Source: Geosiphon pyriformis uo1
Taxonomy: Eukaryota > Fungi > Glomeromycota
Assembly: GCA_016748015.1 (NCBI GenBank)
Contig: JAAOMT010000198.1
Coordinates: 477,380 to 541,379, forward strand
Direction of reading: 5' to 3'
DNA length: 64,000 nucleotides
In this document: positions 2,619-61,421 of the stretch, in pieces
Layout of the letters: each line of letters begins with the position of its first letter
How positions within the stretch are numbered: the stretch's first letter is position 1
Made by a program: the position numbers and the translations under genes
The notes under the pieces: model-generated
The model's input: only the letters and a program-made list of their open reading frames with translations
Told to the model about the DNA's origin: nothing
Databases searched by the model: none

Positions 2619-3680
2619 TTAATTTTCTATTTCAGTGTTTAAGTATCCCATGGTGGTTCTGGATGGTATTACTATAACATTTTTTGTGTTGTTGTAGATG
2701 GGAATTTTGATGTGGCTGTAATCTTTGGCTGGTATGTGGAGATTAATGAATCCAATCTCTCCTGATTCGCAAAGGGTCAGTTCTGTTTCAAAAATCTGAT
2801 TCTGTTCTTTTTCTTTCCTTTCTATTGCTAGCATGTACTGGCTATATAATAGAATAGAAATAGCTTGACTGGTTGAGATAATTTTTCCTTGGCCAACAAT
2901 TTCTTTCTCTGTCATATTAACTGGTACATCTATTCTACCCATTAATCCAAATCCTTGTATCCCTCTTGCTGTTATTCCTAATTCATTTCTTGTTTTTATT
3001 GACACTAAGCTAGCTACTTTGACTAGTGGCAGGAATATGGCCTGTGCTATCTTTTCATTTGGCTCAATAGTATAAGTTTTTTCTGAGTCATTTTGTAGCA
3101 TGGCACTGATATTTTCTGTATATCCTGCATCCACTATTCCCTCTCTAATATTAATTCCTTTTTTCACTAAACTACTCCTAAACACTAACAGAACCATGGT
3201 TGTTGCTGGGATCTCTAGAGCTATTCTCAGATTAATGCATACTTGTGCATTTGGCTCCAATTTGATGGCATTTTTTCCTGGATATTTCAGATCAAACCCT
3301 ACATCAGTATCATGTGCGCGTTCTGGCATAATACCTTTTCCATTGTCACTATACCATTTCAACTTCTGTTCCTTAGAGAAATCTGGTAGTGCAATATATT
3401 GTTCATAGTTTGTATCAGAGTTTGGATCCGAGTTGGAATCATTGTTGTTGTCATTGCCATGTTGAATAGAGCTGGAACTGGTGTTTTCGTCGTCATTCTT
3501 GTCAGAGTTTGAATTGGAATTGAAAATTGATTCCAATTTTGATGTGCAGCTGCTGATTGGTTCTTCTTCTTTGAAGATCATATAGATCATGCATGGTGGT
3601 GGATTGTAAATAAGGTTACAATCATCACAATATTCAAAGTCACTGAGAATTAAACAATGGCAACACAGTCTTGTATTCAA
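2619..3680 (-). pseudogene. Family B pol segment containing a trimeric dUTPase domain, preceded by a Cys cluster and N/D/S-rich linker and followed by a possible second degenerate dUTPase-like domain
   Basis: The five dUTPase motifs are recognisable though mutated: PERAHDTDVGFDL, RSSLVKKGI, GIVDAGYTENI, EKIAQAI, RGIQGFG. Confidence 0.85.
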
Positions 3681-4387
3681 CTGTGCTAGCCATTGTTCTT
3701 ACTTCTCTCTAGTGGGTGCCAAGTTTTGGTAGTGTTTATAGAACTCTTTTGGTTCTAAGAAATTTATGACTGGCTCTGCATTTCAGTCAAGCTTAATGGG
3801 TTCTGGTGGGTTGTTTTTGATTTTTCTGATCTCTTTGGGTGTTGCTCCTTCTATTTTGGCAATTGCCATTCTCCAAATTTTGTTGTCATCATGTGGACAA
3901 CTGCCCAGTTGCTGTACAGCTCTTCTCCAAGTGGCTTTTATTAACATCCCTTTTTGTACCCAGTTGCTAATAAGGATTGTGTATTAACATGATACATCGC
4001 ATGTTTCTCCATGTCTAGGAATGTCATTCCATATTCCTTCATTGAAGAGGGTCTTGCCACAGGCTAAACATGGTGTATTATTCCTTTTTCCCACTTGTCT
4101 TGGTCTTCCAAAACGCTCGACAAGGCATGCGCAGCAATAGAACTTGGTTGCCATCTGATATTCTTTGTTGTTGCCACAGCATGTGTCTATTGATGACAAT
4201 TTCTTGCCACAATTAATGCACACTAGTTTGGGTCAGCAATAGATGGATTGTTGTGATGTTGTGTGTTGATAGGAGGTATATGGGTTTGTTGGCAGTGGCT
4301 CTTTTTCTTTCACTTTTCCTTTCCCTTTGTTGCTTTTTTCCTATTTTTAGCTGGAAGTCAGTTTGCTCTCGTCATTGTCGGTCCATG

Positions 4388-7338: not shown

Positions 7339-7354
7339 CTCACAGGAAGCACCA
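7339..7354 (-). promoter_or_regulatory. Primer binding site, elongator tRNA-Met type (family B)
   Basis: Minus strand TGGTGCTTCCTGTGAG, 2 nt inside the LTR end. It matches the family A PBS apart from one C>T. Confidence 0.8.
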
Positions 7355-7356
7355 AA

Positions 7357-8221
7357 TGTTACAGATAACAATTTCTGGTGTTAAATTAAATACGAACCTG
7401 TAACTTGGTGTTCAAAGCTATTTTTATTGTCGATGATCTAAAGGTTTGGTATCTGAAGGTTTTGTATCTAAAGGGTTTGGTTGAGTTCTTTGTATAATGA
7501 ACAGAGATTCAATGATGATAGTTTTTTTTCATAGCTTTCCGAAACCGCAGTTTCGTCAATTTTTTTCTCAGCTTAATGGCTGGTATTCCTCCTGGTAAGC
7601 TATCCTCAATCAAATGTTCTACCCTTATTTCTGGGTCTTTTACCAGTCACGTTTATCCTGACGTTAGTGCTCCATGTATTAATCCTCAATAGAGTTAGTA
7701 AACAACAATAAAATCAAAGCAAGAAAATAAAGAAAATAAAATAAAATAAAGAAAGAAAAGAAATAAGCCAAGGCAATTTTACAAGTTAGTATTCCATCAA
7801 TAGCCATGATCAAGAGCTATTGTTCCAGTGTGGTTAAGTATCAATTACTATCAACATGGAAATGGGTTTGAAATAACAAATAGTTATTTATTAGATGATT
7901 GTAATTTGGAGAGTTGCTTAGATTAAATCTAAACTAAGAGGTCTGTCTTTTTAGCTTCTAATCCTGCTGCTATATATATATAATTGAAATTTCTCAATTC
8001 CTCGATTCTTCATGACAAGAATCCTGGAATTCCTGAAATCCTGCAATTCCTTTGAAAGGAATCTTGGAATTCTGGAATCCTGCGATTCCTCGTCAGAGAA
8101 TTCTGAAATTCCTGGAATCCTGTAATTTCTGAAAGGAATCCTGGAATTTCACATTTACTATGCCTACTTCTGATTGGCTAATAATCATGCTAATATATTT
8201 TTTATATTTCTATAAGTAACA
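7357..8221 (-). repeat. 5' LTR of family B
   Basis: Bounded by the inverted repeat TGTTAC...GTAACA, adjacent to the PBS, with a (TA)n TATA-like run at ~7972-7982, short GAATCCTG/GAATTCCTG repeats at ~8017-8150 and CCAAT at ~8173. The partner LTR is not in the window, so the outer boundary is inferred. Confidence 0.7.
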
Positions 8222-14503: not shown

Positions 14504-15253
14504 TGTTACGGGTTGGAATAACAAGCTAATAGATAGCAAGGGAGAACAGTATTGTATGATGATGAAAATAAACAAAGAGGGAATTACAATAAAGGAGCAA
14601 ATTGAATAAGTAGGAATTCAATGTGCGTGATCAGTCTCATAAAAATCACAGTTGCTAATCTTTTCTTAAATCTGAAGGTAGAGGAATAGTCCGTGATTGT
14701 CAATAAGATAACACCACTGCTATTATTCTATGCTTCAACTCGGCAATTCTTAGAATCAATAACAGGTATCATTGTACTTTTCAATCGTTTCTTTATTCAA
14801 TGAATTACAAGAGCAAGCCAATTGCTTCTCAGGCTATTTCTAACAAATACAAATCAAAAAGGGGAAAAGATAAGATATGTGAATGCCAACAAGTAGATAC
14901 TTGAAGGTAAGGAAAGGGGAATAAGTGATTATAAGAGGAAGTAATTGATATTGTTTATTTCATTACTTTGATCATGTCTTTCTACAGCTAAGGGAATCAT
15001 CGCTTATATAGCTATCTAAAGTAGTCAATAACTAGGTCAACAATCAGGTCAATGATCAGATCAATGATCAGGTCAATGATCAGGTCATTAATCAGGTTAT
15101 TGATCAGGTCAATGATCAGGTCAATGATCAGGTCAATGGTCAGGTTATTGATCAGGTCAACGATTACTATCTAAAAATAGGGTGGCTAATTATATGACAT
15201 CAGTGGCTAATACATGTGATAATTAATAAAAACTATGTGTTTTAACCATAACA
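14504..15253 (-). repeat. 3' LTR of A1
   Basis: TGTTACGGGTTGG...TTAACCATAACA, abutting the PPT (minus GGAGAGGATGA, 15254-15264); matches the sequence from 21561. Confidence 0.95.
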
Positions 15254-21537: not shown

Positions 21538-21554
21538 CCTCACAGGGAGCACCA
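21538..21554 (-). promoter_or_regulatory. PBS complementary to elongator tRNA-Met 3' end (A1)
   Basis: Plus strand CCTCACAGGGAGCACCA ends in CCA. It resembles recalled eukaryotic elongator tRNA-Met 3' ends (human CCTCACACGGGGCACCA, yeast CCTCCCCTGGAGCACCA). Confidence 0.82.
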
Positions 21555-36639: not shown

Positions 36640-38175
36640 ATGGGTGATTATTCATATCTGCCATAGCAATCAGAAGAACACTTTGCAGCACACAACAGAA
36701 ATGACCTAGATTTCATTGAACTTAATCCTTTGCCCTCCTGCTTGATCTGCTTTCCCATTGAAAAACAAATCCAGCAGACAATTCCAAGACTTTTGGAACT
36801 GGTTTTTGAATGAGCATTCAGCTGAAACCTACACAACTTATACAACCTATTACTTTGATCAAGCTTATTTTGAAGATAACTTTGAAGAAAGAAACAACAG
36901 TATCAATCAGCTCTTATATTCTACAATCTTTGAACAACAGCCCCCTGATTTCGAATATCTGAATCATCAAATCCACATTTGGATTGCTGTCCATCAATCA
37001 ACAGTAACTCCTCTTGAAACAGAAGAAGAAAGCTACCAAACAGCCCCTATTTTTGAACTCTTCTTAAGAGAATCAGAGCACTCCACACAAACAGTAACTC
37101 CTGAACCAATGGCCCAAGTCCCAATGCAAGTAACCATCCTGGCCGCCCTCCAAGGCATACAAACTGCTTTGGGATGAAGAAACAACACCCCACTACCCCT
37201 ATTCAGAGGTGATGTCCAAGATCCAATTGAATGGTTGGACGATTTTGAAAGAACAGCCACTGCCAACCAATATGATGATGAGTACAAGTTCCAAATTGTT
37301 GGTGGCTACCTCCAAGGCTCCTCTGCTACCTGGTTTTCACAAGAAACCAATGCTGGTGCTCAACAAAGAATTGTTAGATGGACCCCAGCAAATATTGGAG
37401 AAAACAACACCTCTTTCACTACCCAGTTTGAAAACAAAATCAGAACCCCCATCTTAATATCCAAATGGCATATGAAATTAGAAAAAAGAACCCAAGGTCC
37501 TGGTGAAATTGTGACTGAATATGCCAAAGCAATCAGAAAACTCATCAATTGTGTAGACTCTGGTAGAAACTAGACTGAAAAGCAAAAGATCCACTCCTTC
37601 ACAAAAGGATTGAGAACTGATTTATCATATGCTTTTTGGCCTCTCTTGGCTTTAAAAGATAATCCCACCATGGATATGGCCATTGAACTCACCCAAAGAA
37701 TTGAAGACAATCAAAGAATGCATTTGGGATCCACACTTTCAGTTTTTGCTCTTCTCAAATGGCTGCTACTTCTTTTGCTGCCCAAACCCAAGACCCAAAT
37801 AAACAATTGATAGATAGACTCACAGCTAACCTTGCCCGATTATTAGAACCATTGGCACAAGCAGTCAGAGATAACCAGCAACCACCAAGACCTAGATATG
37901 AACCTCTTTTTAACCAGCTCCAACAACCTCTCTATTAAAGACAGCAAAATCGTGGCCCACCTGTGTGCTATTGTTGTGGATTAACTGGACATTATTCAAG
38001 AGATTATAACAATCCTCCACTGTCTCCTCCAGCTCCCAGAAACAATGACAACCAAAACAACAGACCCAACAACAACAACAATGTCCCCAATCAAAGACCC
38101 AATCATGCCAACATCAATTTCTTTGGAGAGGATCCCCTAGTTGAAGCCACTGTTTATTAGCCTTTAAACTGGTAG
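36640..38175 (+). pseudogene. A3 gag, disrupted
   Basis: ATG MGDYSYL at 36640; fragments 36758-37177, 37235-37573, 37963-38160. Confidence 0.9.
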
Positions 38176-38210
38176 GCGCATCTCCAAAGGATGAGAGTGC
38201 AAGCCAACCA
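38163..38210 (+). promoter_or_regulatory. Putative -1 ribosomal frameshift signal (T TTA AAC plus hairpin) joining gag and pol
   Basis: X XXY YYZ heptamer in the gag frame, one codon before the gag stop. The -1 frame reads FKLVGA... into pol. Retained in all six visible copies. Confidence 0.82.
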
Positions 38211-41200
38211 GAAGAAAACCCCTTTTATGCTTTTAACTTAACTGATGATGACCATGACATGGATGAACTAGCAATCAACACCTCAGAACCAACCAGAAAG
38301 AAGAAGAAAGCCAAGGTTGATTTTGTTTTAGACCCCAATAAAGCCTTAACTTCTACTGCTGATAACAATAAGCCACCAAAGGCTAAAGTTTTTAAGAATC
38401 TTCCAAAGTTGGAACCCCCAGAAATTGTACAAAAATCTGGACCCTATTCAGTTGTTAAAGATCTCATGGAAATCCCAGCACATATTACCTTTGGCCAGTT
38501 AATGACCCACCCACAGTTCAGAAAAGATCTTCGCAAATCCTTGATTCTAAAGAAGAAGACACCAAAAAACAACAAGTGCTCTCACCAAGTTGGACTTGCT
38601 GACAACAGCAATGTCACCCCTCTGATTTGTAAAGCCCAAGTGGCTGGATACTTCATTGACTTAATTCTGGACAGTGAATCATCTGTTAGTGTCATTGCCA
38701 AACACTTCTTGGAAGCAATTGGTAGAAAGATTTATGAACCTTCCACCAGACCAATGACCAACGTACATGGTGACAAAAAGAAAAAACTGGGTATTGCCAA
38801 AGCTGTTTCTGTTCGCATCAATGGAATCAGCATTGAAACTAACATGGAAGTTTCTGAAGCCAAGAAATACACCATCATTGTTGGCAATGAATGGCTCAAA
38901 AAAGCAAAAACTTTGCTTGATTATGAACTTTGTGAATTAACCATCAGATGTGGTGAGAAACCCATTGTGGTTAAGTGTTGCCATTGGACAACTCCCCCAG
39001 TACCCAAACAAAACCAAGAAGAAGAACAATCAGATGAATCAGATGATGAAAAGAGCGATGAAGAAGAAGAACAAGAAGAGCAAGAAGAAACTGCTAAACT
39101 CGCCTATACCACCTTCACCAGCAATGGCAAACCACTGGACAATGTTAAAGCAGACAAGGAAGGAATCATTGTAAATGGCAAGCTGATCTGCTGGCCTTAT
39201 TATGATATTCTTAGAAGAACCTTTGAAAGAAAACCTGGCAAGAAAGCCAAATACAGTTTTTGGTGGCATGGTCCTTGTGCCCAGTGTTGGTGCAACAAAC
39301 TCTTGTATTCTCCAAGCAATGAATGCAAATCATGCCTGATCTATTACAGAGATTGAGAACCAATCAGTTTGATACCCAGAAAAGAATTGAAAGAAGTACA
39401 GAAGTCTTTTGAGAATGAACCACCTGAGATCCAATCACTGGTTGTAGAACAAAAAGAACCCTCCCTAGAAGAAAGAAAAATAGACATTGAAAATTTGCTG
39501 GCTAGAAATAGCCCAGTTATCTCCAAAGAAAATGATACCCCTGGACATACCCATGTAATACAACACACCATCACCACCAGAGAAACTCGACCCATCCGTT
39601 TGAAGCCTTATCAATTCAATCGGCACAATAATGAGTTTATCAAGAAAGAGATAAACTGGATGAAAGAACTTGGATTCATACAAGAAACCAAGAGTGAATG
39701 GGCTTTCCCAGTTGTAGTGGTATCCAAGAAAAGTGGAACACTACACTTCTGTGTTGACTACTGCCAATTAAATGCCATCACTGAAAGAGACATGTATCTA
39801 CTTCCCAAGATTGATGCAATGTTAGACCAATTCAAAGATGCTGCTTTCTTCTCAACTATTGACTTAACTGCTGGATTCTGGCAAGTAGAGATGAATCCAG
39901 AAAGCAGAAAGAAAACTGCCTTCATCACCAAGTATGGCACTTATGAATTCACAGTTATGCCTTTTGGTCTCACCAACGCCTCTCCCACCTTTCAATGCTT
40001 AATGAATAAAGTATTTGAATCAGTCAAGGAAAACTTTGTTCTAGTCTATTTGGACGACATAATGATATACTCAAAAACCTGGGATGAACACCTAAAACAT
40101 TTACAAAAAGTTTTTGACCTCCTCAGAAATGCTGACCTCAAGATCAACCCAATCAAATCTTTTTTTGAAAGACAATCCACCCAGTTTTTTGGTCATCTTA
40201 TCACATAAAATGGAATCTTTTCTGACCCAGCCAAAGTTGAAAAAGTCTAAAACATCAAACAACCAATGAACATTCATGAACTATGCTCTTTTCTTGGTTT
40301 GGCCTCTTATTATCGCAAATTTGTCAAGGATTTCTCCAAAATCACCTCTCCTCTCAATCAGCTACTCAGGAAAAATGTCAATTACCATTGGGGAACACAT
40401 CAGCAAAAAGCCTTTGAAACTTTAAAGAAAAAACTGGTTACAGAACCCATCCTCAAGCAACCTGATCTAGATCGACCCTTTATTCTCCATACTGATGTAT
40501 CTGGCTTTAGACTTGGTGCTGTTCTCTCCCAGAAAGATGAAGATGGCAAAGAACATGCCATAGCCTATGCCAGTAGAACCTTTTCCCCAGCAGATCAGAA
40601 CTATTCAGTCACTGAACAAGAATGCTTAGCAGTAGTATGGTCCACCAGTTACTGGAGTAAGTATCTTCTTGGTGTGAAGTTTTTGGTGATAACAGATCAC
40701 CAAGCTTTGGTTTGGCTGCACAACAAAAAGAGACTAGAACACAAATGGATAACTCATTGGATACTCCACTTGGATGAATTTGACTATGATATTCAACATC
40801 GCAAAGGAGCTAATCATCAAAATGCCGACGCTCTCTCCAAACTTACCATCCAGTGACAGAACAACCCTCTCAAACCAAACCAACTTAATTATTAGTAATT
40901 CCTCCTTTTTAACAAACACAATAATGGACTTGAACAACTACTCTGCCTTAATGAAATTTTTGGGTAAAAGACAATACTCACCAAAATACACATGACAACA
41001 AAGAGAACATTTGTGTAAACAATCAAATTTCTATTTGATTTGTTAGAACCAACTTTATAAAAGAAATAAAAAAGATCTTGACTGCCCCCAGAGAGTCATC
41101 AGATTTGAAGAAAGAGAAATTGTGATCTACAATATGCACACTGATCCATTAGCTGGACACTTTGGAAAAACAAAAACAATTCAGAAAACTCTAGCTTGCT

Positions 41201-42237
41201 ATTATTGGCCTATCTTGGGAAAAGACATTGCTGAATACATCAAAACCTGTGATATCTGCCAAAGAAGAGGAAAACCCAATCACAAAAAAGATATCCATCC
41301 AATCTCTGTTGGTTAACCCTTTGACAGAATTGGTATAGATGTTGTTGGACCTTTAACAATAACTCCTGATGGCAACAGATACATTATCACAACTATCGAC
41401 TATCTTACAAAGTGGATAGAAGCAAGAGCCACTCCAGACCAAACAGCAGTCTCAATAGCCAATTTCATTTATGAAGATATCATTTGTCGCCATGGCTGCC
41501 CCAAAGAACTTTTATCTGATAGAGGAAGAGCTTTTCTTAGTACACTTATTAAAGAACTTTGCAGAAAAATGGGAATACGTCACAAACTTTCCTCTCCTTA
41601 TCACTCCCAAACAAATGGCCTAGTAGAACATTTCAATAGAACACTATGTGAAACCCTAGCAAAAACCAGTGAAGAAACAAACTTATGGGACAAAGTACTG
41701 CCTTCAGCCTTGTTTGCTTATAGAACTGTGAATCATGACATAACAAGTTATGAACCCTTTTATCTATTCTATGAACAAATGGCAACCCTACCAATAGAAA
41801 CTGACATTGAGACAATACCCTTTGAAGAAATAACAATAGAGAATTACAAAGACATTTTGCAAAAAAGACTTGGTACCATTCTTGACTCATTAGTAGAAGC
41901 ACAGATAATTGCCTTTGAAAAGATAAAACAATTCCAAGAGAAGCTTAAGAAAAAAAAAACATATAAAACACTTTCCTTAAGTGTTGGTAACTTAGTTTTA
42001 GAATACCGTTCAGACAGAGACAATGTCTATGGTAATAAATTCTCTAGCTAGTGGAAAGGACCCTTTATAGTCAACAAAGTTTTGAACAATAGTTTTTATA
42101 TTCTTCAAGATTAATTTAGAACAATCTTTAATAATCATTCTGTTCATAGTACATAACTCAAGAAATATTATAAATAACCTGATTGGTTGTCTGTTGTGAT
42201 AATACCAACCCAAATAATCAACAAAAATTAGATATAA
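38163..42237 (+). pseudogene. A3 pol, disrupted
   Basis: ORFs 38259-39356, 39369-40208, 40266-40856, 41122-41316, 41569-42051. Confidence 0.93.
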
Positions 42238-43068: not shown

Positions 43069-46000
43069 ACTTTCAATAGCTATATAAGCAATGAGTCTCT
43101 TAGCTGTAGAAAATCATCTCTTAGACAAGAATCAAATAAATAAAAATAACAACTTTCATCTCAATCACTCTCTTATCACTAATTTCCCTTTCCCTACCTT
43201 CAAGTATCTGAACATCTTAGGATAAAAGATTACTTGTTGGTCTTTTCTTGTTTGAATAATTGTAGTATTTGAAAACTATTTGTATAAACATGACTGAAGA
43301 GCACAAGTTGATACTTGATATTGAATTCTAAGAGCACCAACGTGAAGGCATAGAATTAATACCAGCAGTGATCAATTGTTGACAGTACGGACTATCCCTC
43401 TACTTTCAGATTCCCCAGTTACCTTTGAAAAGAATAGTGACTGAGATATTTTATAAGACTGATTTTGCACATTGAATCCATACTTATTCAATTCACTCTT
43501 TAAAGTTGAATTCTCCTTTGATTATTTCCATTACCCTACAATCCTGTTCTCTCTTGCTATCTGTTAGCTTGTTACTCCAACCTGTAACAATATTCTCAGA
43601 AGAACTTTTGACAAAAAGCCTGGCAAGAAAGCCAAATACAGCTATTGGTGGCATGGTCTTTGTGCCAGGTACTGGTGTGATAAACCTTTGTATTCTTCTA
43701 GTGATAAATGCAAGTCCTGTCTAATCTATTACAAAGATTGGGAGCCAATTAGTTTGATACCCAAAAAAGAACTAAAAGAAGTATAAAAGTCCTTTGAGAG
43801 TAAACCATCTGAAATCCAATTACTAGTTGTAGAACAAAAAAAACCTTCCCTTAAAGAAAGAAAAATGAACATTGAAAATCTGTTGGCTAGAAATAATCCA
43901 GTTATTTTAAAAGAAGGTGACACTCCTGAATGAACCCATGTGATACAACACACCATTACCACCAAAGAAACTCACCCCATTCATTTGAAGCCTTATCAAT
44001 CTAATCGATGTAATGATAAGTTTATTAAGAAAGAGATAAACTAGATGAAAGATCTTGGATTTATACAAAAAACCAAGAGTAAATGGGCTTTCCCAGTTAT
44101 AATAGTGTTATGGTTGAGACCTATACTTCTTATTAATTATCACATATATTAGCCACTAATGTCATATGATTAGCCATACTATTTTTAGAAAATGATCATT
44201 GACCTGATCAATGATCTGACCATTGACCTGACTGTTGATCTGATCAATGACCTGATTAATGACCTGATCATTGATCTGATCATTGACCTGATCATTGACC
44301 ACTTTTGATAGCTATATAAGCAATGAATCTCTTAGCTGTAGAAAAGCATGTAATAACAAGCATCTGAATAATCAAGAATAAATAAAATAACAACTTTCAT
44401 CTCAATTCTTCTCTTATCGCTAATTTTCCTTTCTCTACCTTTAAGTATCTGAACATCTTAAAGATAAAAGATTACTTGTTGGCCTTTTCTTGATGTATAT
44501 AATTGTAGCATTTGAAGATTATTTGAATAAACATAACTGAAAAGCATAAGTTGATACCTGATATTGAATTCTAAGAGCACTGACATGAGGCATAGAATTA
44601 TACCAGTGGTGATCAATTGTTGACAGTACGGACTATCCCTCTACCTTCAGATTCCCCAGTTACCTTTAAAAAGAATAGCGACTGAGATATTTTATGAGAC
44701 TGATCTCACACATTGAATCCATACTCATTCAATTTGCTCTTTAAAGTTGAATTCCCCTTTGATTATTTCCATCACCCTACAATCCTGTTCTCCCTTGCTA
44801 TCTGTTAGCTTGTTACTTCAACCCATAACATAAAAGTGGTGCTTCCTGTGAGGTTGTCAAAATTCACTTATTTTCTCATTGTATGGGTGATTATTCATAC
44901 TTGCCACAGCAATCAGAAGAACACTTTGCAGCACACAACAGAAATGACCTAGAGTTTATTGAACTCAATCTTTTGCCCTCCTGCTTGATCTGTTTCTCTG
45001 TTGAAGAACAATCCAGTAGACAATTTCAAGACTTTTGGAACTGGTTCCTGAACGAGCATTCAGCTGAAACCTACACAGCTTATACTATCTATTACTTTGA
45101 TCAAGCTTATTTTGAAGACAATTTTGAAGAAAAAAATACCAGCATCAATCAGCTCTTATACTCCACAACCTTTGAACAACAGCCCCCTAATTTCGAATAT
45201 TTGAATCACCAAATCCATATTTGGATTGCTGCTCACCAACTAGTTGAAAACTCCTTTGAAACAGAAGAAGAAAGTTACCAAACTGCTCCTATTTTTGATA
45301 TTTTCTCAAGTAAATCAGAGCACTCTACACAAACAGTAACTCCTGAACCAATGGCCCAAGATCCAATGCAAGCAAACATTTTGGCTGCCCTCCAAGGTAT
45401 ACAAACTGCCTTGGGGTGAAAAAACAACACTCCACTACCATTATTCAGAGGTGATGCACAAGATCCAATTGAATGGTTGGATGATTTTGAAAGAGCTGCT
45501 ACNNNNNNNNNNNNNNNNNNNNTACTATCTATTACTTTGATCAAGCTTATTTTGAAGACAATTTTGAAGAAAAAAATACCAGCATCAATCAGCTCTTATA
45601 CTCCACAACCTTTGAACAACAGCCCCCTAATTTCGAATATTTGAATCACCAAATCCATATTTGGATTGCTGCTCACCAACTAGTTGAAAACTCCTTTGAA
45701 ACAGAAGAAGAAAGTTACCAAACTGCTCCTATTTTTGATATTTTCTCAAGTAAATCAGAGCACTCTACACAAACAGTAACTCCTGAACCAATGGCCCAAG
45801 ATCCAATGCAAGCAAACATTTTGGCTGCCCTCCAAGGTATACAAACTGCCTTGGGGTGAAAAAACAACACTCCACTACCATTATTCAGAGGTGATGCACA
45901 AGATCCAATTGAATGGTTGGATGATTTTGAAAGAGCTGCTACAGCCAACCAATATGATGATGAGTACAAGTTTCAAATTGTTGGTGGCTACCTCCAAGGC

Positions 46001-46307
46001 TCTCTTGCTACCTGGTTCTCACAGAAAACTGATGCTAATGCCCATCAAAGAATCATTAGATAGATGCCAGCAAATGCCGGAGAAAACAACATCTCTTTCA
46101 CAACCTGGTTTGAAAACAAGTTCAGAACCCCAATCTTGATATCCAAGTGGCACATGGAATTAGAAAGAAGAACTCAAGGCCCTGGTGAAATTGTAACTGA
46201 ATATGCTAAAGCAATCAGAAAGTTNNNNNNNNNNNNNNNNNNNNCAACCATACCAACATCAATTTCTTTGGAGAGGATCCTCTAGTTGAAGCCACTGTTT
46301 ATCAGTC

Positions 46308-49300
46308 TTTAAACTGGTAGGCACACCTCCAAAGGGTGAGAGTGCAAGCCAACCAGAAGAAAACCCCTTTTTCACTTTTAACTTAACTAATGATGACCAT
46401 GACATGGATGAATTAACAATCAACACTTCTGAATCAACCAGAAAAAAAAAGAAAGCCAAGATTGATTTTGTTCTAAATCCCAACAAAGCCTCAACTTCCA
46501 CTGCTGATAACAATGAGCCACCAAAAGCCAAAGTTTTTAAGAACCCTCCAAAGTTGGAATCCCCAGAAATTGTGCAAAAATCTGGACCCTATTCTGTTGT
46601 CAAAGATCTCATGAAAACCCCAGCACACATTACCTTTAGCCAGTTAATGACCCATCCACAGTTCAGAAAAGATCTCCACAAATCTCTAATTCCCAAGAAG
46701 AAAACACCAAAGACCAATAAACGCTCTCACCAAGTTGAACTTGCTGACAACAGCAATGTCACTCCTCTAATTTGCAAAGCACAAGTGGCTGGTTACTTCA
46801 TTGACTTGATCCTAGACAGTGGATCATCTGTTAGTATAATTGCCAAACACTTCCTTGAAGCAATTGGCAGAAAAATTGATGAGCCTTCCATCTGACCAAT
46901 GACCAATGACCAATGTACATGGTGACAAGAAGAAAGGTCTGGGCATTGCCAAAGCTATTCCTGTCCACATCAATGGCATCAGTATTGAAACTGACATGGA
47001 AGTTTCTGAAGCTAAAGAATACACCATTATTGTTGGCAATGAGTGGTTCAAGAAAGCAAAAGCCTTACTCGACTATGAACTTTGTGAGCTAACCATAAGA
47101 TGTGGTGAAAAACCCATTGTGGTTAAATGTCACCATTAGACAACTTCTCCAGCAACTAAACAAAATCAAGAAGATGAGCAATCAGAGGAATCAGATGATG
47201 AAGAGAGTGATAAAGAAGATGAACAAGAAGAACAAGAAGAAACTGCTGAACTCGCCTACACCATCTTCACCAGCAATGGCAAGCCACTAGACAATGTTAA
47301 AGCTGATAGAGAGGGAATTATTGTAAATGGCAAGCTGATCTGCTGGCTCTACTATGATATTCTAAGAAGAACCTTTGACCAAAAGCCTGGCAAGAAAGCC
47401 AAATACAGTTATTGGTGACATGGCCCTTGTGCCTAGTGCTGGTGCAATAAACTTTTGTATTCTCCAAGTGATGAATACAAATCATGCCTGATCTATTACA
47501 AAGATTGAGAACCAATTAGCCTAATACCAAGAGATGAATTAAAAGAAGTACAGAAGTCCTTTGAGAATAAACCACCTGAGATTCAATCATTAGTAGTAAA
47601 ACAAAGAGAACCCTTCCCAGAAGAAAGAAAGATAGACATTGAAAATCTGTTGGCAAGAAACAGCCCAGTTATCTTAAAAGAAAGTGATACCCCAGGACGA
47701 ACCCATGTGATACAACACACCATCACCACCAGAGAAACTCACCCCATCCATTTGAAGCCTTACCAATCCAATTGCTGAAATGATGAGTTCATCAAGAAAG
47801 AAATAAACCAGATGAAAGAACTTGGATTCATACAAGAAACCAAGAGTAAATGGGCTTTCCCAGTTGTAGTGGTATCCAAGAAAGATGGAACCCTATGCTT
47901 CTGTGTTGACTACCACCAATTAAATGCAATCACTGAAAGTGACATGTACTCAAAGATGCTGCTTTTTTTTCAACCATTGATCTAACTGCTGGATTCTGGC
48001 AAGTAGAGATAGATCCAGAAAGCCAGAAGAAAACCACCTTTATCACCAAGTATGGTACCTCTGAATTCACAGTCATGCCTTTTGGTCTCACCAATGCCCC
48101 TCTCACCTTTCAATGCTTAATGGATAAAGTATTTGAATCAGTAAAAGAAAACTTTGTTCTGGTTTATCTGGACGATATAATGGTATACTCAAAAATCTGG
48201 GATGAATACCTTGAACATTTGCAAAAGGTTTTTGATCTTCTCAGAAATGCAGGTCTCAAGATCAACCCAATCAAATCTTTCTTTGGAAGACAATCCACCC
48301 AATTCCTTGGCCATCTTATTACAAAAGATGGAATCTTCCCTGATCCAGCCAAAGTGGAAAAGTTCAGAACATAAGACAACTAATGAATGTTCATGAGTTA
48401 CATTCTTTCCTTGGTTTGGCCTCCTATTATCACAAATTTGTTAAAGATTTCTCCAAAATTGCCTCTCCACTCAATCAGCTACTCAGGAAAAATGTCAACT
48501 ACCATTGGGGCACACATCAGCAGAAAGCATTTGAAACCCTTTAAGAAAAATTGGTTACAGAACCTATTCTCAAGCAACCTGATTTGGATCAACTTTTTAT
48601 CCTTCACACTAATGCATCTGCCTATGGACTTGGTGCTGTTCTCTCACAAAAAGATGAAGATGGCAGGGAACATGCAATAGCCTATGCCAATAGAACCCTT
48701 ACACCAGCAGAAAAGAACTATTCAGTTACTGAGCAGGAATGCTTAGCAGTAGTTTGGGCTACCAGCTACTGGGATAAGTATTTCCTTGGTGTGAAGTTTT
48801 TGGTGGTAACAGATCACCAAGCTTTGGTTTGGCTGCACAACAAGAAAAGGCTAGAACATAAATGGATAGCCTGCTAGATACTCTATTTGAATGAATTCAA
48901 CTATGATATTCAACACTGTAAAGAAGCTAATCATCAAAATGTTGATGCTCTCTCCAGACTTACCACCAAGTGACAGTACAACCTCCCAAACCAAACCAAC
49001 CTAATTATTAGTAATTCTTTTACAACCAAACACAATAATGGACTTGGACAACTACTCTGTCTTAATGGAATTTTTGGGTAAAGGACAATACCCACCAAAA
49101 TACACTCAACAGCAAAGAGAACATTTGCGCAAACAATCAAATTTTTATTTGATCTGCCAGAACCAATTATATAAAAGAAATAGAAAAGATCCTAACTGCC
49201 CCCAGAGAGTCATAAGATTTGAAGAAAGAGAAATTGTGATCTACAACATGCACACTGATCCATTAGCTGGACACTTTGGAAAAACAAAAACAATTCAGAA

Positions 49301-50350
49301 AACTCTAGCTCGCTATTATTGACCTACCTTGGGAAAAGACATTGCTGAGTACATCAAAACCTGTGATACCTGCCAAAGAAGAAGAAAACCCAATCGCAAA
49401 GAAGACATCCATCCAATCTCTATTGGCCAATTCTTTGACAGAATTGGTATAGATGTTGTTGGACCTTTAACAGTAACTTCTGATGACAACAGATACATTA
49501 TCACAGCTACTGACTATCTTATAAAGTGGGTAGAAGCAAGAACCACCCCAGATCAAACAGCAGTTTCCATTGCTAATTTCATTTATAAAGATATTATTTG
49601 TTACCATGGCTGCTCCAAAGAACTTTTATCTGATAGAGAAAGAGCTTTTCTCAGTATACTGGTTAAAGAACTTTGTAGAAAAATGGGAATACATCACAAA
49701 CTTTCCTCCCCTTATCACCCCCAAACAAATGGCCTAGTAGAACATTTCAATAGAACACTATGTGAAACCTTAGCCAAAACAAGTGAAGAAACAAACTTAT
49801 AGAACAAAATACTGCCTTCAGCTTTGTTTGCTTATAAACCTGTGAATCATGACATAACAAGTTATGAATCTTTTTATCTGCTCTATGGACACATGGCAAC
49901 ACTACCAATAGAAACTGACATTGAAACAATACCCTTTGAAGAGATCACAATAGCAAATTCCAAAGAATTTTGCAAAGAAGACTGGATACCATTCTTGACT
50001 CATTGGTAGAAGCACGAATAGTTGCTTTTGAAAAGATAAAACAGTTTCAAGAAAAGCTTAAAAAGAAAAAAACCTATAAAATACTTTCTTTAAGTGTTAG
50101 TGACTTGGTATTAGAATACCGTTCAGACAGAGACAATGTTTATGGTGATAAATTCTCTGGCCAGTGGAAAGGACCTTTTATAGTCAACAAAGTTTTGAAC
50201 AATGGTTCTTATATTCTTCAAGATCAATCCAGAACAATCTTTAATAATCATCCTGTTTATGACATGTGACTCAAGAAATATCACAAATGATCTGATTGTT
50301 TACCTGTTGTGGTAATACCGACCCAAATGATCAGCAAAAATCAGATATAA
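46308..50350 (+). pseudogene. A5 pol, disrupted
   Basis: LILDSGSSVS (46404-46895), VYLDDIMVYS (48075-48374), integrase 49038-50269. Confidence 0.92.
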
Positions 50351-50391
50351 ATAAATGCACCACTCCCAAAACAGAGGTATCTTCAATCAAC

Positions 50392-50987
50392 ATGAACAAT
50401 TATTTTCTGGATCAAAACATTCAAAACACTTTCTATACTCTTTATGAGTATTGGATTAAAAACTATTCAAATGCTACTCTGACCATTGGAAAACAAACTA
50501 CAATAACTGACAACAGTGGAACACATACTGTTATCAGACCAAAGAAAACAACTACCAGAAGAGAAAAAATTGGTAGCAAAATAGATAAGTATTTGCTGGA
50601 AAGTATAACAGCAGCAATACTTGCACCTTCCATCACAATTGGAAAAACAATTAAAGAAATCTTGCCCATAGACAAAAACTTGTCATATGGAAGACAACTT
50701 CTGAGATACAAGTGGAAATTTTGGACATTGTACGATTATATGTCCCAAGAATTTTGACCATTGCAAGAAGAGCCAAAACTCTTATACAAAGATTTGGTCT
50801 CTTGGACACAAAGCTCATTTTGCCTCAAGTTTTATATACCTTATCCACAAAAGACTTCAACAAACTAGTTAGTTTTGAGTTAGATAAAACCCTTCAAATA
50901 GAGTATCCCCTAAATAGTTTGATTTCACTGGAGCTCAATTTCTTTGGAGAGGATGATATTATAGTTGAGACCTATACTTCTTATTAA
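50392..50987 (+). pseudogene. A5 ORF3, frameshifted by internal deletion
   Basis: ORFs 50296-50757 and 50712-50987. Confidence 0.8.
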
Positions 50988-51673
50988 TTATCACATGTAT
51001 TAGCCACTGATGTCATATGATTAGCCATACTATTTTTAGAAAGTGATCATTGACCTTATCAATGACCTGACTGTTGACCTGACCATTGATCTGATCAATG
51101 ACCTGATCAATGACCTGACTGTTGACCTGATCATTGACCACTTTTGATAGTTATATAAGTGATAAATCTCTTAGCTGTAGAAAAGCATGTAATAACAAGC
51201 ATCTGAATAATCAAGAATAAATAAAATAACAATTTTCATCTCAATCCTTCTCTTATCGCTAATTTCCCTTTCCCTACCTTCAAGTATCTGAACATTTTAA
51301 AGATAAAAGATTACTTGTTGGCCTCTTCCTGACATATATAATTGTAGCATTTGAAGATTATTTGAATAAACGTGACTGAAAAGCACAAGTTGATACTTGA
51401 TATTGAATTCTAAGAGTGCCAACGTGAGGCATAAAATTATACCAGTGGTGATCAATTGTTGACAGTACAGACTATCCCTCTACCTTCAGATTCCCCAGTT
51501 ACCTTTAAAAAGAATAGTGACTGAGATATTTTATGAGACTGATCTCGCACATTGAATCTATACTTATTCAATTTGCTCTTTAAAGTTGAATTCCCCTTTG
51601 ATTATTTCCATTACTCTACAATCCTGTTCTCCTTTGCTATCCATTAACTTGTTACTCCAACCTGTAACAATAG

Positions 51674-54600: not shown

Positions 54601-54723
54601 CCACAAAAAACTTCAACAAACTAATTAGCTTTGAGTTAGATAAAACCCTTCAAATAGATTACCTCATGAATAGCTATATTTTGCCAGAGCTCAATCTCTT
54701 TAAAGAGAATGATGTTATGGTTG
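51674..54723 (+). pseudogene. A4 RT-RNaseH-IN and ORF3 (3' portion of host element)
   Basis: Resumes VSKKSGTLCFCVDY after the A5 TSD; integrase 53084-53638; ORF3 from 54164; PPT and LTR start at 54713. Confidence 0.9.
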
Positions 54724-57156
54724 TTTTTTTTTTTGTTAATGTGTAGTCATACCTGTCGTTTATTAGTTATTCCACAGTAATGTGGCAGTTTCATAAAACC
54801 AGCTCACCCAATAATACATATTACAAGATGCGGCTAACCACAAGCAAAAAGCTCTAACTACATGCTAGTACTACCTTTGCTACCTAATGTATTAAACATA
54901 TCTAATTCATACATCTTACTCATAATGCATACAAGTTCATGACTACTCTTAACAAGACTGCTCATCCACTTAGCAGTCTGATCTGGATCGGACTTGATAT
55001 TAGAGGATTGAACCTCCCATAACTCCATCATCACATCAAATGTATCATCATAGACCAAAAAATCTTTAGCATTACCATCATCATCATCATCATCATCATC
55101 ATCCATGTCTTCATCATCAGATATGTTATAGTGTACCTTCTCACTCCTCAACTTGAGGGCCTCCATTTCCTTTTGCAGTACAGAAGCCACAGCACAAACA
55201 GCTTTAATTTGGTTTCCCAATCCAATCACACTTTCCCTCATTGCCTCTGCCATAACTGGTGGAGTAGACAATAACATAGTAACCAATGCAACCAAAGAAC
55301 CCACAGGCTCAACAATAAATTTGATCAACAAAGACAGTTCACTAAGTTGGGTTTCCAGAGAAGCCAATCTAGCATTAACAGCAACATCTGAACCAAAGGA
55401 GACAACTGGCAACAGCAGCACCACAACTTTGGGGAAGGTACTGAAAGCCAGACCCATATCAGCAGCAGCAGCAACAGGAGGAACCACAGAAGTGGCAGCT
55501 TTGGCATAGGATTTAGCTCCAACAAGGGATGACTTGAAAATGATGGGACCACCAGCAGAATTAGAAGAGAGTTTGGGAGGGAGAGGTGGCAACACCTTGC
55601 AGTCCACAGCCAAATGATCTAAACTTTGACATCTATAACAGTGACAACATCCAGGAGTTTCCCACCAGATGCGGCAGCCACGTAAGGTACCAGTTTTTGA
55701 AACAGCAGCATTCAAGGATTCCAAAGAGCCAAAGGTCACCACTGCAAAGTGTTGATGTCAATAGGAATCAGAGGAGCAGGGAATAAAACACGTACAGCCA
55801 CCAACTTGGGAGACCAGATCACTTATCTCAAATGCAGTGCAGTCAAATGGAAGATTAACCAGCTTAGCTTTGAAAGCATCTCTTGAGGAGATAACCTCCT
55901 TTTGGTTGGCAATAGGAAGAATCCTAATACTATCTTTTCTGACCAACACAGACCAGTTAGAGAGAGCAGCAGCCGCAGAAGAAATGTCCTTAAAGTTAAC
56001 CACAGCATATTGCCATAAGCCAGCAGGCTTCAACTTAACAGAAGTGACAACACCAAAAATGCCAAGAGCAGATTTGATGTCATCAGAAGAGGCACCCAAG
56101 GGTACATCACACAGTGCAACTAACAAAGAAGGGGAAAAAACAGAGGCCACTCCTGAAGACTGTGCAATCTTAAGAGTGGTCAAAAAAACCTCATCACCAA
56201 TGGCCACTTTGGTAGCACCATTTAGACACTCCTGAGATGCAAATTCCACACAGAACAACTTGACAGCATCTCATGAAACAGATTTAAGCCCAATACAACC
56301 AGGCAGCAACTGAAACAAAGAACTGAGCAAAGCCATCTTGATCTTAAATGTAGCACTAGGTATAAGATTGGAGGCCATCCAACCAGAGAACCTTTGACAT
56401 CCATTCATATTTACCCAAGCACCAGCATCAGATGCACCAGAAACTGGGGGGGAACAGTTAATTCCATTTCCATCTGATCAGCCCAATCTTTGAGATCATC
56501 TGGATTGATGGACTGTTTTGCTACTGGGATTGGCAATGATCTGCTGGAGAGTACCACATCAGGCAACACAGCCAGTGGTTGATCTTGGCCCATCTTGGGA
56601 GATGTGCTGCTGCTGTTGCCATCCATATCAGAAAGAGGGCTTGCTGCTGCTGTGAAGATCTTACCGAAGATCTCATCTGGAACCACAAAGGGGTTCAGTG
56701 TAACCATAGCAGTTGTGACTGCCTGCTGCTGTTTTTTGGGATTTTTCGCTTTTGCGGCCATTTGTGAAGTAGTAGTAGTAGAAGTAGTAGTGAGAATGGT
56801 GAAAGCAGGAAAAACCAACTTGTTGACTGGTCTGTTATTAAAAATTTTTGGGCTCTTTGAAGTGGTAGAGACAACACTAGGACTAACCTGAATGTGTCTT
56901 TTTGAAGGGACTTTGACTGGAGAAGAACTTCCAGCCAAAGAAGAAGAAAATGAACCAAAAGCCACTAAAGGCAGCTTATTACTATTATTTTTTAAAGGAA
57001 ATGTTGCCAGAACGTTTTGTCTAGCTGCTTCAATAACAGAGAGACCCTTTCACATTGAAACTTTATTAGTTACTATAGGAAAAGTAACGTTTGCAACTTT
57101 TTTACTCTTAGCTCTATCCGTGGTCATGAAAATTAGGAAAGAAAGAGTTTTTTTTT
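54724..57156 (-). mobile_element. Family D copy 1: ORF1-only non-LTR retroelement with poly(A) tail and 14-bp TSD
   Basis: T11 at 54724-54734; TGATGTTATGGTTG duplicated at 54710-54723 and 57157-57170; a single ORF1-like coding region and no RT. Confidence 0.9.
54858..57127 (-). pseudogene. Family D ORF1-like protein (~750 aa: S/T-rich N-terminus, RRMs, CCHC knuckle, coiled coil, poly-Asp), a few stops/frameshifts
   Basis: Fragments 56411-56965, 55758-56258 and 54858-55742. VALCDVPLG...FKAKLVNLPFDCTA aligns by eye to the LINE C ORF1; CYRCQSLDHLAVDC knuckle. Confidence 0.85.
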
Positions 57157-57159
57157 TGA

Positions 57160-57790
57160 TGTTATGGTTGAAACTTATACTTCTTATTAATTATCACATG
57201 TATTAGCCACTGATGTCACATAAATTAGCCATTCTATTTTTAGTAAGTGATCAATGACCACTTTTGATAGCTATATAAATAATGAATCTTTTAGCTGTAG
57301 AAAAACATGAAGAAATCAAGAAAATAAAATAAATAAAATAACAACTTTCATCTCCATCATTCTCTTATTGCTAATTTCTCTTTTCCTATCTTCAAGTATC
57401 TGAACATCTTGGGATAAAAAATCACTTGTTGGTTATTCCTTACTTTTTTCCTGAAACATGTAATCGCAGCATTTAAAGATTATTGAATAAAATGTGACTA
57501 AAGAGTACATCTGATACCTAATATTGAATTCTAAGAGCACTAACATGAGGCATAGAATTATACCAGGCATGATCATTTGTTGACAGTATGAACTATCCCT
57601 CTACCTTCAGATTCTCCAGTTATCCTTTGAAAAGTATAATGACTGAGATATTTTATGAGACTGATCTTGCACATTGAATCCATACTTATTCAATTCACTC
57701 CTTAAAGTTGAATTCCCTTTGATTATTTCTATCATCCTACAATTATGTTTTCCTTTGCTATCCGTTAGCTTGTTACTCCAACCCATAACA
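57160..57790 (+). repeat. 3' LTR of A4 (first 11 nt also at 54713-54723 because of the D1 TSD)
   Basis: TGTTATGGTTG...CCCATAACA followed by ATAT and no PBS. Confidence 0.9.
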
Positions 57791-57794
57791 ATAT

Positions 57795-60787
57795 AATGTC
57801 TAAAATTTCTACCTGTATCTCTGAAGTTGTTTTTTTTAGGAGTTTTATATTCTCCATGATTTCACCAAAGCAACCATAGAGTTCTAATTGCCTTCCATAT
57901 AACAAGTTTTTGTCTATGGGCAAAATTTCTTGAAAGATGAAAATATAGCTGCTGTTATACTTTCCAACCAATTTTTTCTCTTCTGATAGTAGTTTTCTTG
58001 GGTCTAATAACAGTATTTATTTTACTGTTATCAGTTATGATGGTCTGTTTTTCAATGGTCAGAGTAGCTTTTAGATAGTTTTTGATCCAATATTTATGGA
58101 GAGTATAGAAAGCATTTTGAATGTTTTGATCCAGGAAATAATTGTTCATATTGATTTTTTTTTGTTAATGTATAGCCATGCTGGTCATTTATTAGTTATG
58201 TCCACAGTAATATGGCACTTTCATAAAGCCAGCTCACCTAATAATACAAATCACAAGATACAGCTAACCACAAGCAGAAAACTCTAACTACATGCTTGTA
58301 CTACTTTTGCTACTTAATGTATCAAACATATCTAATTCATATATCTTACTCATAATGCTAACAAGCTCATGACTATTCTTAACCATATCACTCATCCACT
58401 TAGCAGTCTGATCTGATACTGAAAGACTAATCTTCCCAAAAATACATTATAACATCAAAAATGTTATCATAGACTGAAAAATCTTTGTCATCATCATCAG
58501 ATGCATCCTTCAAGCAGATCTGCTCACATTTTTTCTCAAGGTGTGTTATTTTTTTCTGCATTATGGAAGCAACAGCAGCCAAGCTTTTATTTTGCTTAGC
58601 CAATCCAGCCACACTTTCATTAACTAATACATCCATGGCAGGTGGAGTAGACAGCAATTTGGTAACTAATACAACCAAAGCACCAACAAATTCAACCAAG
58701 GATTTTATCAACACAGACAGTTTACCAAGGTGAGATTCCAGAGAAGTCAACCTAGATTTAACAGCAAAATTGGGAGCAGAAGAAACAACAGGCAACATGA
58801 GTGTTGTAGTTTTGGGGGGACTACCAAGATCCAAGTTTATATTAGCAGCAGCAGCAACAGGAGAAACCACTAAGACAGCAGCTTTGGCATAAAATTAATA
58901 TCCATCAAATGAAGGTTTGAAAACTTTGGAGCCACCAGAAGTGTTGAAAGAGAGTTTGGATGGAAGAGATGACTTCTTGCAGTCCACAGCCAAATGATTC
59001 AAGTCTTGATACCTGTAGTAGTGACAACATTCAGGAGTTTCCCACCAGATGCAGCAACCATGCAGGGTACCAGTTTTTGACACAGCAACATTCAGAGATT
59101 CCAAAAAATCAAAGGTAATTACAGCAAAGCATTAACATTGGTAAAATTCAGAGAAGCAAAGAATAAAACATGTATGGCCACCAACTTGAGAGACCAAATT
59201 ACTTATCTCAAAGGCAGTACAGCCAAAGAAAAGAAATAACATCATTTTGGTTGGTAACAGAGAGAATTCTAATACTATCTTTCTTAACCAGCACAAACCA
59301 ATAAGTAAGAGTGGCAGCAGCAGAAGAAATGAACCACAGCATATTGCCATAAACCAGCCAGCTTCAACTTGACTGAAATAATGACACCAAACATGCCAAG
59401 AGCAGATTTGATGTCATCAGAAGAGGTACCCAAAGGTATATTATGAAGTGCAACTGACAAAGAAGGGGAAGAAACAGAGGCCACACCAGAAGACCTTGCA
59501 ATCTTAAGAGTGGTCAAAAAAACTTCATCACCAATGGCCACTTTGGTGGCACCATTTAGACTTTCCTGAGATGCAAATTCCACACATAACAACTTAACAG
59601 CATCTCTTAAAACAGACTTAAGCCCAATGCAACCAGGCAGCAACTGAAACAAGAAACTAAGCAGGGCCATTTTGATCTTAAATGTAGCACCAAGTACAAG
59701 ATTGGAGGCCACCCAATCAGAGAACCTTTGATAACCATTCATATTTTCTCAAGCACCACTATCAACAACACCAGAAACTGGAGGAAGAGCAGTTGATTCC
59801 ATTTCCATTTGATCAGCCCAATCTTTGAGATCATCTGAAATAATGAGCTGTTTTGCTACTGGGATTGGCAATGATCTGCTAGAGAGTACCACATCAGGCA
59901 ACACAGCCAGTAGTTGATCTTGGCCCATCTTGGAAGCTGTGCTACTGTTGTTGCCATCCACATCAGAAAGGGAGCTGGCTGCTGCTGTAAAGATCTTACC
60001 CAAGATCTTATCTGAAACCACAAAGGGGTTTGGTGTCACCAAAGCAGTTGTGAGTGCCAGCTGCTGTTTTTTGGAATTTTTAGCTTTTATGGCCATTTGT
60101 GAAGTAGTAGTAATAGTAGTAGTAGTAGTAATGGGAATGGTGAAAGCAGAGAAGACCAACTTGTTGACTGGTCTGTTATTAAAAATCTTTGGGCTTTTAG
60201 AAGTAATAGAAACAACACTGAAACTAATCTGAGTGTGTCTTTTGAAAAGAACTTTGACTGGAGAAGAACTACTAGCCAAAAGTGAAAAAAATGAACCAGA
60301 AGCCACTAAAGACAGCTTTTCACTAATGTTTTTTAAAAGAAATGTAACCAAAACGTTTTGTCTAGCTGTTTCAATAACAGAAAAACCCTCTTGTGTTAAA
60401 ACTTTATTAGTTATTATAGGAAAATTAACATTTGCAACTTTTTTACTCTTAGCTTTAGTTGTGGTCATAAAATTAAGGAGAAAAAAAGTTTTTTATTCCT
60501 TTTATGTTGATTGAAAATACCTCTGTTTTGGGAATAGTGCATTTATTTATACTTGATTTTTGTTGATTATTTTGTTTGGTATTATTAAAACAGGCAACCA
60601 ATCAGATCATTTGTGATATTTCTTGAGTTGTATGCCATGAACAAAGTGATCATTAAAGATTGTTCTATAGTAATTTTGTAAGATATAAAAACTATTGTTT
60701 AAAACTTTGTTGACTATAAAGAGTTCTTTCCACCAGCTAAAGAATTTATTGCCATAGACATTTTCTTTGTCTGAGCAATATTCCAAT
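57795..60787 (-). mobile_element. Remainder of A0 (ORF3 and integrase C-terminus: 57795-58156 and 60513-60787), split by D copy 2
   Basis: MNNYFLDQNIQ ORF at 57955-58149; sequence resumes GAAAATACCTCTG at 60513. Confidence 0.82.
58157..60500 (-). mobile_element. Family D copy 2: ORF1-only non-LTR element
   Basis: Poly-T at ~58155-58163; degenerate 12-bp TSD TTCATATTGATT (58145-58156) / TTTATGTTGATT (60501-60512); colinear with D1 from ATG 60468. Confidence 0.87.
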
Positions 60788-61421
60788 TACACACTAGTAC
60801 TACTTATGCTACTTAATGTATTAAACATATCTAATTCATATATCTTATCCATAATGTTAACAAGCTCATGACTATTTTTAACAAGACTGCTTATCTACTT
60901 AGCAGTCTGATCAGAATTAGATTTGACACTGGAAGACTGATCTTCCCATAAATACATTATAACATCAAAAATGTTATCATAAACTGAGAAATCTTTTTCA
61001 TTATTATCATTATTTTTTAATTGTTTATTAGCTTGTCCAATGATACAGTTGGCACTTTTATTTTTTTTATTGTTAACATGTAGCCATGCCAGTCATTTAT
61101 AAGTTATGTCCACAGTATTATGGTGCTTTCATAAAACCAGCTTACCTAATAATACAAAAATCACAAGATGCGGCTAATTACAAATGGAAAGTCCTAACTA
61201 TATGCTAATACTACCTTTGTTACCTAATGTATTAAATATATCTAATTTGTACATTTTACTCATAATGCTAACAAGCTTATAACTATTCTTAACCATATCA
61301 CACATCTACTTAGCAGTCTGATAAGAACTGGATTTAATATTGGAGAGCTAATCTTCTCATAAATTCATCATAAGATTAAAGATGTTATCTTAAACAGAAA
61401 AATTTTTAACATCATCATCAT
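60788..61421 (-). mobile_element. Two further family D 3' fragments (~60788-61012; ~61056-61421 with poly-T), the second interrupted by A6
   Basis: Match to 54724-55090 (3' UTR and end of ORF). Confidence 0.78.

Follow-up and report, generated by a model that had tools for sequence, protein, structure and literature searches.

Why do the LTRs of a fungal retroelement carry two short boxes that together complement the anticodon arm of a tRNA-Met, the tRNA class to which the PBS of the same element also points? We addressed this question in a 64,000-nt stretch of the Geosiphon pyriformis genome, hereafter the window, which is a nest of decayed Ty3/gypsy copies in which CpG is strongly depleted (0.13). 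The protease-RT frame finds its best matches among Geosiphon pyriformis gene models, with up to 89% identity for RT, and remoter relatives at approximately 40% identity in metagenomes and in Rhizophagus; a search of viral contigs with the RT query returned no relative. Other repeated families lie among the gypsy copies, at 54720-61420 and at 8594-10258/22846-24498, and the ORFs at 54858-60492 have no Pfam match.

The boxes belong to a decayed, LTR-to-LTR Ty3/gypsy copy on the forward strand (44106..51669), a 7.6-kb coding element delimited by a 4-bp TSD and by an LTR pair identical at 663 of 713 positions (93%), which sits within the RT region of another copy. Its assignment to Ty3/gypsy is based on TG...CA LTR ends, a TSD, a PBS and a polypurine tract (PPT), together with a gene order in which gag is followed by protease-RT-RNase H-integrase (ORFs 38145-42051). 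The gag, protease, RT, RNase H and integrase families were all detected in sibling copies of the element, and no chromodomain was found in the 10 ORFs scanned. The TSD measures 4 bp in both clear pairs (44102-44105/51670-51673 and 34467-34470/26959-26962); in fungal gypsy elements it is usually 5 bp. The preliminary description reported the boxes in an LTR at this site, and the boxes are real, but the LTR that contains them (50957..51669, forward strand) is the 3' one, abutted by the PPT (50946..50956, forward strand) and with no PBS after it. Its 5' partner spans 44106-44830 on the forward strand and is followed by a PBS from 44837; this LTR is the functionally relevant copy, with boxes at 44643-44653 and 44692-44703.

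Box 1 (51482..51492, forward strand) complements positions 37-47 of tRNA-Met, with a core at 38-46, and box 2 (51531..51542, forward strand) complements positions 27-38, with a core at 27-35. These coordinates are exactly those first given; the boxes have 2 nt in common at their junction, giving a 21-nt target, and they are oriented antisense to the tRNA, as in a PBS. Their distance to the LTR 3' end at 51669 is 127-187 nt, close to the earlier estimate of about 130-190 nt. As originally described, the spacer is 38 nt long in this LTR (51493..51530, forward strand) and 26 nt long (14643-14668) in a second subfamily, whose boxes were located by sequence match on the reverse strand (14631..14679). 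The hairpin proposed within the longer spacer, 51496-51502 with 51517-51523, is also the predicted fold, at -7.6 kcal/mol. Across the 38-nt subfamily, predicted values range from -3.2 to -7.6 kcal/mol in all five cases tested, and the hairpin of the 26-nt subfamily is weak (-1.1 kcal/mol).

The identity of the tRNA was approached by scanning viral contigs with the gapped two-box pattern, which returned 9 loci. In 8 of these, the 21-mer corresponds to positions 27-47 of tRNA-Met(CAT), which comprise its anticodon arm together with the variable loop, as had been claimed in the preliminary description; ARAGORN provided the tRNA call for the eighth, which lies at a contig end. We take this anticodon arm to be the one carried by yeast and human elongator tRNA-Met. 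The anticodon stem of initiator tRNA has three G-C pairs, which are missing from the folded arm stem that the boxes complement, and the boxes complement the anticodon arm rather than the T and D arms of an initiator-type target. Among 34 control tRNA genes there is no split match of at least 16 nt to either subfamily or to the distant relative L032, described below, and neither ARAGORN nor Rfam detected a tRNA in the window.

The PBS, recognized by its match to a tRNA 3' end, lies at 44837..44855 on the forward strand and recurs at 36594, 25791 and 62153 on that strand and at 21554 on the reverse strand. Eight fetched tRNA genes end in its complement, seven of them tRNA-Met(CAT) and one Leu. 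The tRNA-Met genes in this set carry an anticodon arm other than the boxes' target, and in one tRNA gene recovered with the box pattern the 21-mer arm occurs together with a T stem compatible with the PBS. Both the PBS and the boxes indicate tRNA-Met(CAT), with a full match to both in none of the single genes fetched, and the two probably match one host tRNA. Scans with the PBS pattern gave 8 viral loci, including 4 tRNA genes and no retroelement, as well as 2 genome loci and a further 7 viral loci, none of which is a tRNA.

Twelve LTR copies in the window were aligned, of which 11 have sequence at the boxes, the other being truncated by Ns. Both boxes are exact in 6 of the 11, and only 12 of 253 box cells differ, 9 of them by C>T or G>A changes. 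When copy b25075, which looks recombinant, is omitted from the subfamily comparison, the subfamily majorities agree at 23/23 box columns versus 505/688 elsewhere (Fisher p 0.0009); the comparison with the 127 columns downstream gives p 0.03. The earlier claim that the boxes are kept between subfamilies therefore stands, but other LTR blocks are kept equally well, with 18 runs of at least 11 agreeing columns between subfamilies across the LTR, and for this reason the argument from boxes versus flanks needs L032 to be decisive. In the contigs of run X1 over the 5' LTR (13055 pieces), none of the 40 variants listed, out of 189, falls in the boxes, where approximately one is expected.

L032 came from a metagenome scan by the PBS alone, which yielded 22 loci: this one related element, 4 tRNA-Met genes, and a remainder without a retroelement protein. 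Its Gag is 31-41% identical over 69-81 aa to that of family A, to which the boxed copies belong, its neighbours carry Retrotrans_gag, and a tract like the PPT of the boxed copy precedes its LTR. By BLASTN, similarity to family A is clear only at the PBS/LTR end and at the PPT/LTR start, and the L032 LTR is otherwise unalignable with that of family A. The two LTRs were compared by exact words; MAFFT misaligned box 1. The only colinear exact words of at least 9 nt are a 13-mer, the TATA box, the box 1 core, the box 2 core and the LTR end. Each box core is exact over 9 nt in L032 (1064-1072 for box 1 and 1081-1089 for box 2), and the two keep their order, 8 nt apart, at positions -172 and -155 relative to the PBS. 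Two ordered 9-mers were obtained in 0/20000 dinucleotide shuffles, and 8-mers in 4/20000.

These matches bear on the proposal that the words are conserved for some other reason, as protein-binding or DNA cis elements, and resemble tRNA-Met by chance. Such an account draws on the equally conserved LTR blocks in the window and on the unexplained 13-mer that L032 also has; we nevertheless consider it highly improbable, given that the boxes match neighbouring segments of a single tRNA arm in the right order, from the tRNA class indicated by the PBS, a combination for which the 34 control tRNAs offer no parallel. Our findings instead suggest that the boxes are extra parts of a multipartite PBS in the 5' leader that would open the anticodon arm of elongator tRNA-Met, a reading of the sequence to which we assign a probability of roughly two in three (0.68). 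In its favour we observe complementarity, order, conservation and one compensatory change.

The preliminary description had left the choice between such multipartite capture and an antisense fossil of an intron-containing tRNA gene; the former gained independent support from the cores, a 6-mer and a helix in L032, and the latter was weakened. In its broader form, the fossil explanation states that the boxes are a non-functional antisense remnant of a tRNA-Met gene with an intron, or of a tRNA copy derived from RT read-through. The pieces do follow the order of the tRNA reverse complement, family A is split at 37/38, which is the usual tRNA intron site, and such capture could plausibly have given rise to the boxes even if they are functional today. 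HIV-1 U3-R provides a precedent, since a tRNA-Lys3-gene-like sequence is reportedly on record there, interrupted at the intron site, and LTR-embedded sequence of this kind is said to aid minus-strand transfer. The work on this HIV-1 sequence is cited in PMC6468702 and PMC11241228. A neutral fossil, however, would not survive where the remaining LTR is unalignable. The extra length between the box cores is 40, 28 or 6 nt (38-nt subfamily, 26-nt subfamily and L032, respectively), positions 36-37 of the tRNA are unmatched in L032, and the 10-11-nt insert between the 6-mer and box 1 is foreign to any tRNA gene. There is no acceptor 5' strand, and ARAGORN and Rfam are negative. The D-loop-like word described at 14609-14616 is present, but it is altered in the 38-nt subfamily and absent from L032. 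Taken together, these points make a fossil very unlikely.

The position of the boxes in the transcript was assessed from flanking signals. A TATA-like box at 51152..51158 on the forward strand (44312-44322 in the 5' LTR), which its sequence suggests may act as such, is a 9-11-nt exact word common to L032 and colinear with it, and in family A it precedes the boxes by 330-380 nt. AATAAA-like words occur 100-300 nt upstream of the boxes in both family A and L032. Because the boxes are downstream of the TATA box and after the AATAAA-like words, they should be in R or U5; on this sequence evidence U5 is likely, which would place them and the PBS at one RNA end. A variable 12-nt repeat array occupies U3 ahead of the TATA box, at 51050-51140 and in other LTRs. 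The 13-mer noted above is also in U3 of family A (50981-50993; 618-630 in L032) and is a possible transcription-factor site.

Box 2 might alternatively serve as a site for tRNA halves or fragments, either as a half-tRNA primer site like those of copia and Ty5 or as a host silencing target, and it does complement the region used by half-tRNA primers according to section 3.6 of PMC10886601 and PMC5371799. However, box 2 stops 127 nt short of the LTR end, and priming at a site about 130 nt inward would leave out the terminal part of U5. The LTR is followed by an intact 3'-end PBS, unlike in the half-tRNA PBS type, where an anticodon-arm complement comes directly after the 5' LTR instead, and one would expect a silencing target to disappear rather than to be retained. 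We find this explanation scarcely credible.

The vicinity of the boxes contains further candidate contacts. A conserved 6-mer (44628..44633, forward strand; CpG-decayed at 51467-51472), predicted to pair with T-loop positions 53-57, lies 10-11 nt upstream of the box 1 core and is exact in L032 (1047-1052), across unrelated linkers; it is intact in 6 of the 12 window copies, and the other 6 show CpG decay. A predicted helix, here called helix H, would join an upstream strand at 44620..44626 (51459-51465 in the 3' LTR) to a complementary downstream strand at 44854..44860 that abuts the PBS, both on the forward strand. It comprises 7 bp in family A and 9 bp in L032, with a compensatory change from a G-C to an A-U pair. 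In a post hoc count, 14/400000 random draws contained, within 45 nt, the 6-mer plus 7 bp of complementarity to the strand that follows the PBS.

A U5:AUG-type helix is also predicted on the forward strand, where 44771-44783 would pair with approximately 44878-44891 (44771..44891) and enclose the PBS and the first gag ATG. It is predicted in all five family A leaders and in L032 with the PBS blocked, and shows duplex values of -13.6 to -16.6 kcal/mol in the five tested and covariation in L032. In the latter it spans about 1177-1282. The first gag ATG, which the helix would sequester, lies about 46 nt after the PBS start; in several copies the gag frame is open through the PBS. Single-strand folds of every leader lack helix H and consistently form the U5:AUG helix. 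Helix H crosses the U5:AUG helix, so that the two would be alternatives or form a pseudoknot.

Co-folding of the tRNA with the leader, envisaged in the preliminary description, predicts a gain of -19.3 to -19.4 kcal/mol in each of the two subfamilies as well as in L032, beyond a null in which 0/600 non-LTR windows reach -12.7 kcal/mol; with LTR copies included in the null, 1, 1, 3 and 4 of 400 reach the observed value. We also modelled three strands, combining the leader with a stand-in tRNA fragment (positions 27-76) carrying no base modifications. In this model the PBS and both boxes form, as do helix H and the 6-mer:T-loop helix in most cases. The probability of helix H is approximately 0.99, 0.97, 0.4 and 0.3 for the leaders at 21554, 36594, L032 and 44837, respectively, and thus weak in 2 of the 4 models. 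T-loop pairing reaches 0.9, 0.7, 0.25 and 0.5 in the same leaders, with a range of only 0.24-0.29 in L032. The pairings of the boxes, the 6-mer and helix H are accordingly all to be read as model predictions.

Helix H also bears on the possibility that the boxes lie in R or act on the second packaged genome, where the tRNA might bridge RNA ends and aid minus-strand transfer or dimerization, as in Ty3, Drosophila Gypsy and HIV-1 U3-R. The strands of helix H are near-palindromic, which would suit such bridging, but the helix requires the strand that follows the PBS, which exists at the 5' end alone, and the AATAAA-like words upstream of the boxes point to U5. We regard bridging as unlikely, although it is the chief competing explanation.

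For the multipartite PBS, we propose a mechanism in which the 3' 17-19 nt of elongator tRNA-Met would anneal to the PBS in the standard manner. Helix H would close a junction immediately after the PBS and place the upstream block beside it. The freed T-loop (53-57) would go to the 6-mer, positions 38-47 to box 1 and positions 27-37 to box 2, and the spacer would loop or fold out. The break between the boxes at 36-38 may reflect poor pairing of A37, a modified base in tRNA, and the greater ease of forming two short helices than one long one. The likely benefit would be to select and hold a translating elongator tRNA and to pace initiation up to the point where RT, in copying U5, displaces the boxes. 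A more extensive version can be suggested tentatively, although we lean against it: in a lineage of fungal gypsy elements, a U5 scaffold would grip approximately 45 of the 76 primer nt (27-47, 53-57 and 58-76) through two RNA junctions, fully unfolding elongator tRNA-Met with its anticodon arm, and would have arisen from RT read-through capture of the primer and been kept across families. If true, primer unfolding would be more complete here than in any other retroelement known.

Extra primer contacts have precedents (section 2.1 of PMC5371799, section 19 of PMC1635307 and PMC3592414). In the extended PBS of Ty1, as described in PMC3592414 and in section 2.1 of PMC5371799, several short boxes near the PBS (boxes 0, 1 and 2.1) likewise complement other parts of the primer tRNA-Met. 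Ty1 differs in being copia-type and in using initiator tRNA, its T and D regions and a short 10-nt PBS, whereas the Geosiphon element combines an elongator-type arm and a 17-19-nt PBS with boxes that lie 140-210 nt upstream inside the LTR and complement the anticodon arm. Box 2.1 was predicted, yet PMC3592414 reports it as not confirmed in particles, so complementarity need not mean pairing. Ty3, from the same superfamily, also has extra tRNA-complementary segments inside the LTR in its bipartite PBS; according to section 2.1 of PMC5371799, however, its second part belongs to the U3 region of the 3' end, approximately 4800 nt away, and binds the T and D arms of initiator tRNA, whereas the Geosiphon boxes are downstream of the TATA box and complement the anticodon arm. 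The 3' PBS of Drosophila Gypsy is a single box near the RNA 3' end, in contrast to the two or three boxes of the Geosiphon element, which extend over both anticodon-stem strands and are likely in the 5' leader.

The HIV-1 PAS is similar in lying in the U5-PBS leader, where it pairs with the T-stem 5' strand, as stated in PMC8473020. HIV-1 differs as a retrovirus whose embedded tRNA-like sequence is in U3-R, and in its cryo-EM initiation complex, as presented in PMC8473020, the anticodon arm stays in the tRNA's own hairpin, whereas the Geosiphon model would open it. Helenus TRIMs also have tRNA-related sequence inside the LTR, and in fungi, but PMC10886601 describes them as non-autonomous elements that keep Pol III A and B boxes and whose tRNA-like part is not tied to the PBS. 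The Geosiphon element is autonomous and keeps only primer-complementary pieces; besides its coding capacity and the negative ARAGORN and Rfam results, no B box was seen by eye next to the boxes, which sets it apart from the Helenus/TRIMp3 type. In the literature searched, largely without subscription papers and supplements, split boxes against the anticodon arm are not described for any fungal gypsy LTR, which is weak evidence of novelty. Overall, the boxes are a real, conserved feature and likely a variant of the extra primer contacts used by yeast elements and by HIV.

So far, extended contacts with the primer have been described in a few model elements, and most of them involve the T and D arms of initiator tRNA. 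If a conserved site opens the anticodon arm of an elongator tRNA on both strands, this would reveal how a specific tRNA can be withdrawn from translation by an element, and boxes that co-vary with the PBS would provide a sequence signature that can be scanned across LTR libraries. The locus also provides an independent case outside viruses in which to distinguish gene fossils from selected primer grips among LTR-embedded tRNA complements, a question that HIV-1 U3-R has raised.

A second family in the window, family B, has its LTR at about 8500-7357 on the reverse strand and a PBS at 7354 that is the same as that of family A. Its RT is approximately 48% identical to that of family A, and a dUTPase frame (2619-3698) lies between protease and RT. 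No box 2 was found in this LTR; three tandem box 1-like words (7436..7476, reverse strand) lie 90-120 nt upstream of the PBS, comprising one exact 10-nt box 1, a match obtained in 94/20000 shuffles, and two degenerate copies. For a family far more distant than L032, the shared PBS and exact box 1 speak for the multipartite reading and the missing box 2 against it. Also counting against it is one sequence present in four soil contigs (L033, L034, L036 and L037), which has neither boxes nor a retroelement protein match but shows this 16-nt PBS-like word behind a candidate LTR end (~1500). Finally, an 8-nt word complementary to the PBS start occurs about 260 nt upstream in the 38-nt subfamily (51418-51425) and is absent from the 26-nt subfamily. 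Intact copies lie near 36310 and 43315, and in the predicted fold of the 36594 leader the word is paired to the PBS; it could possibly act as a PBS-masking switch.
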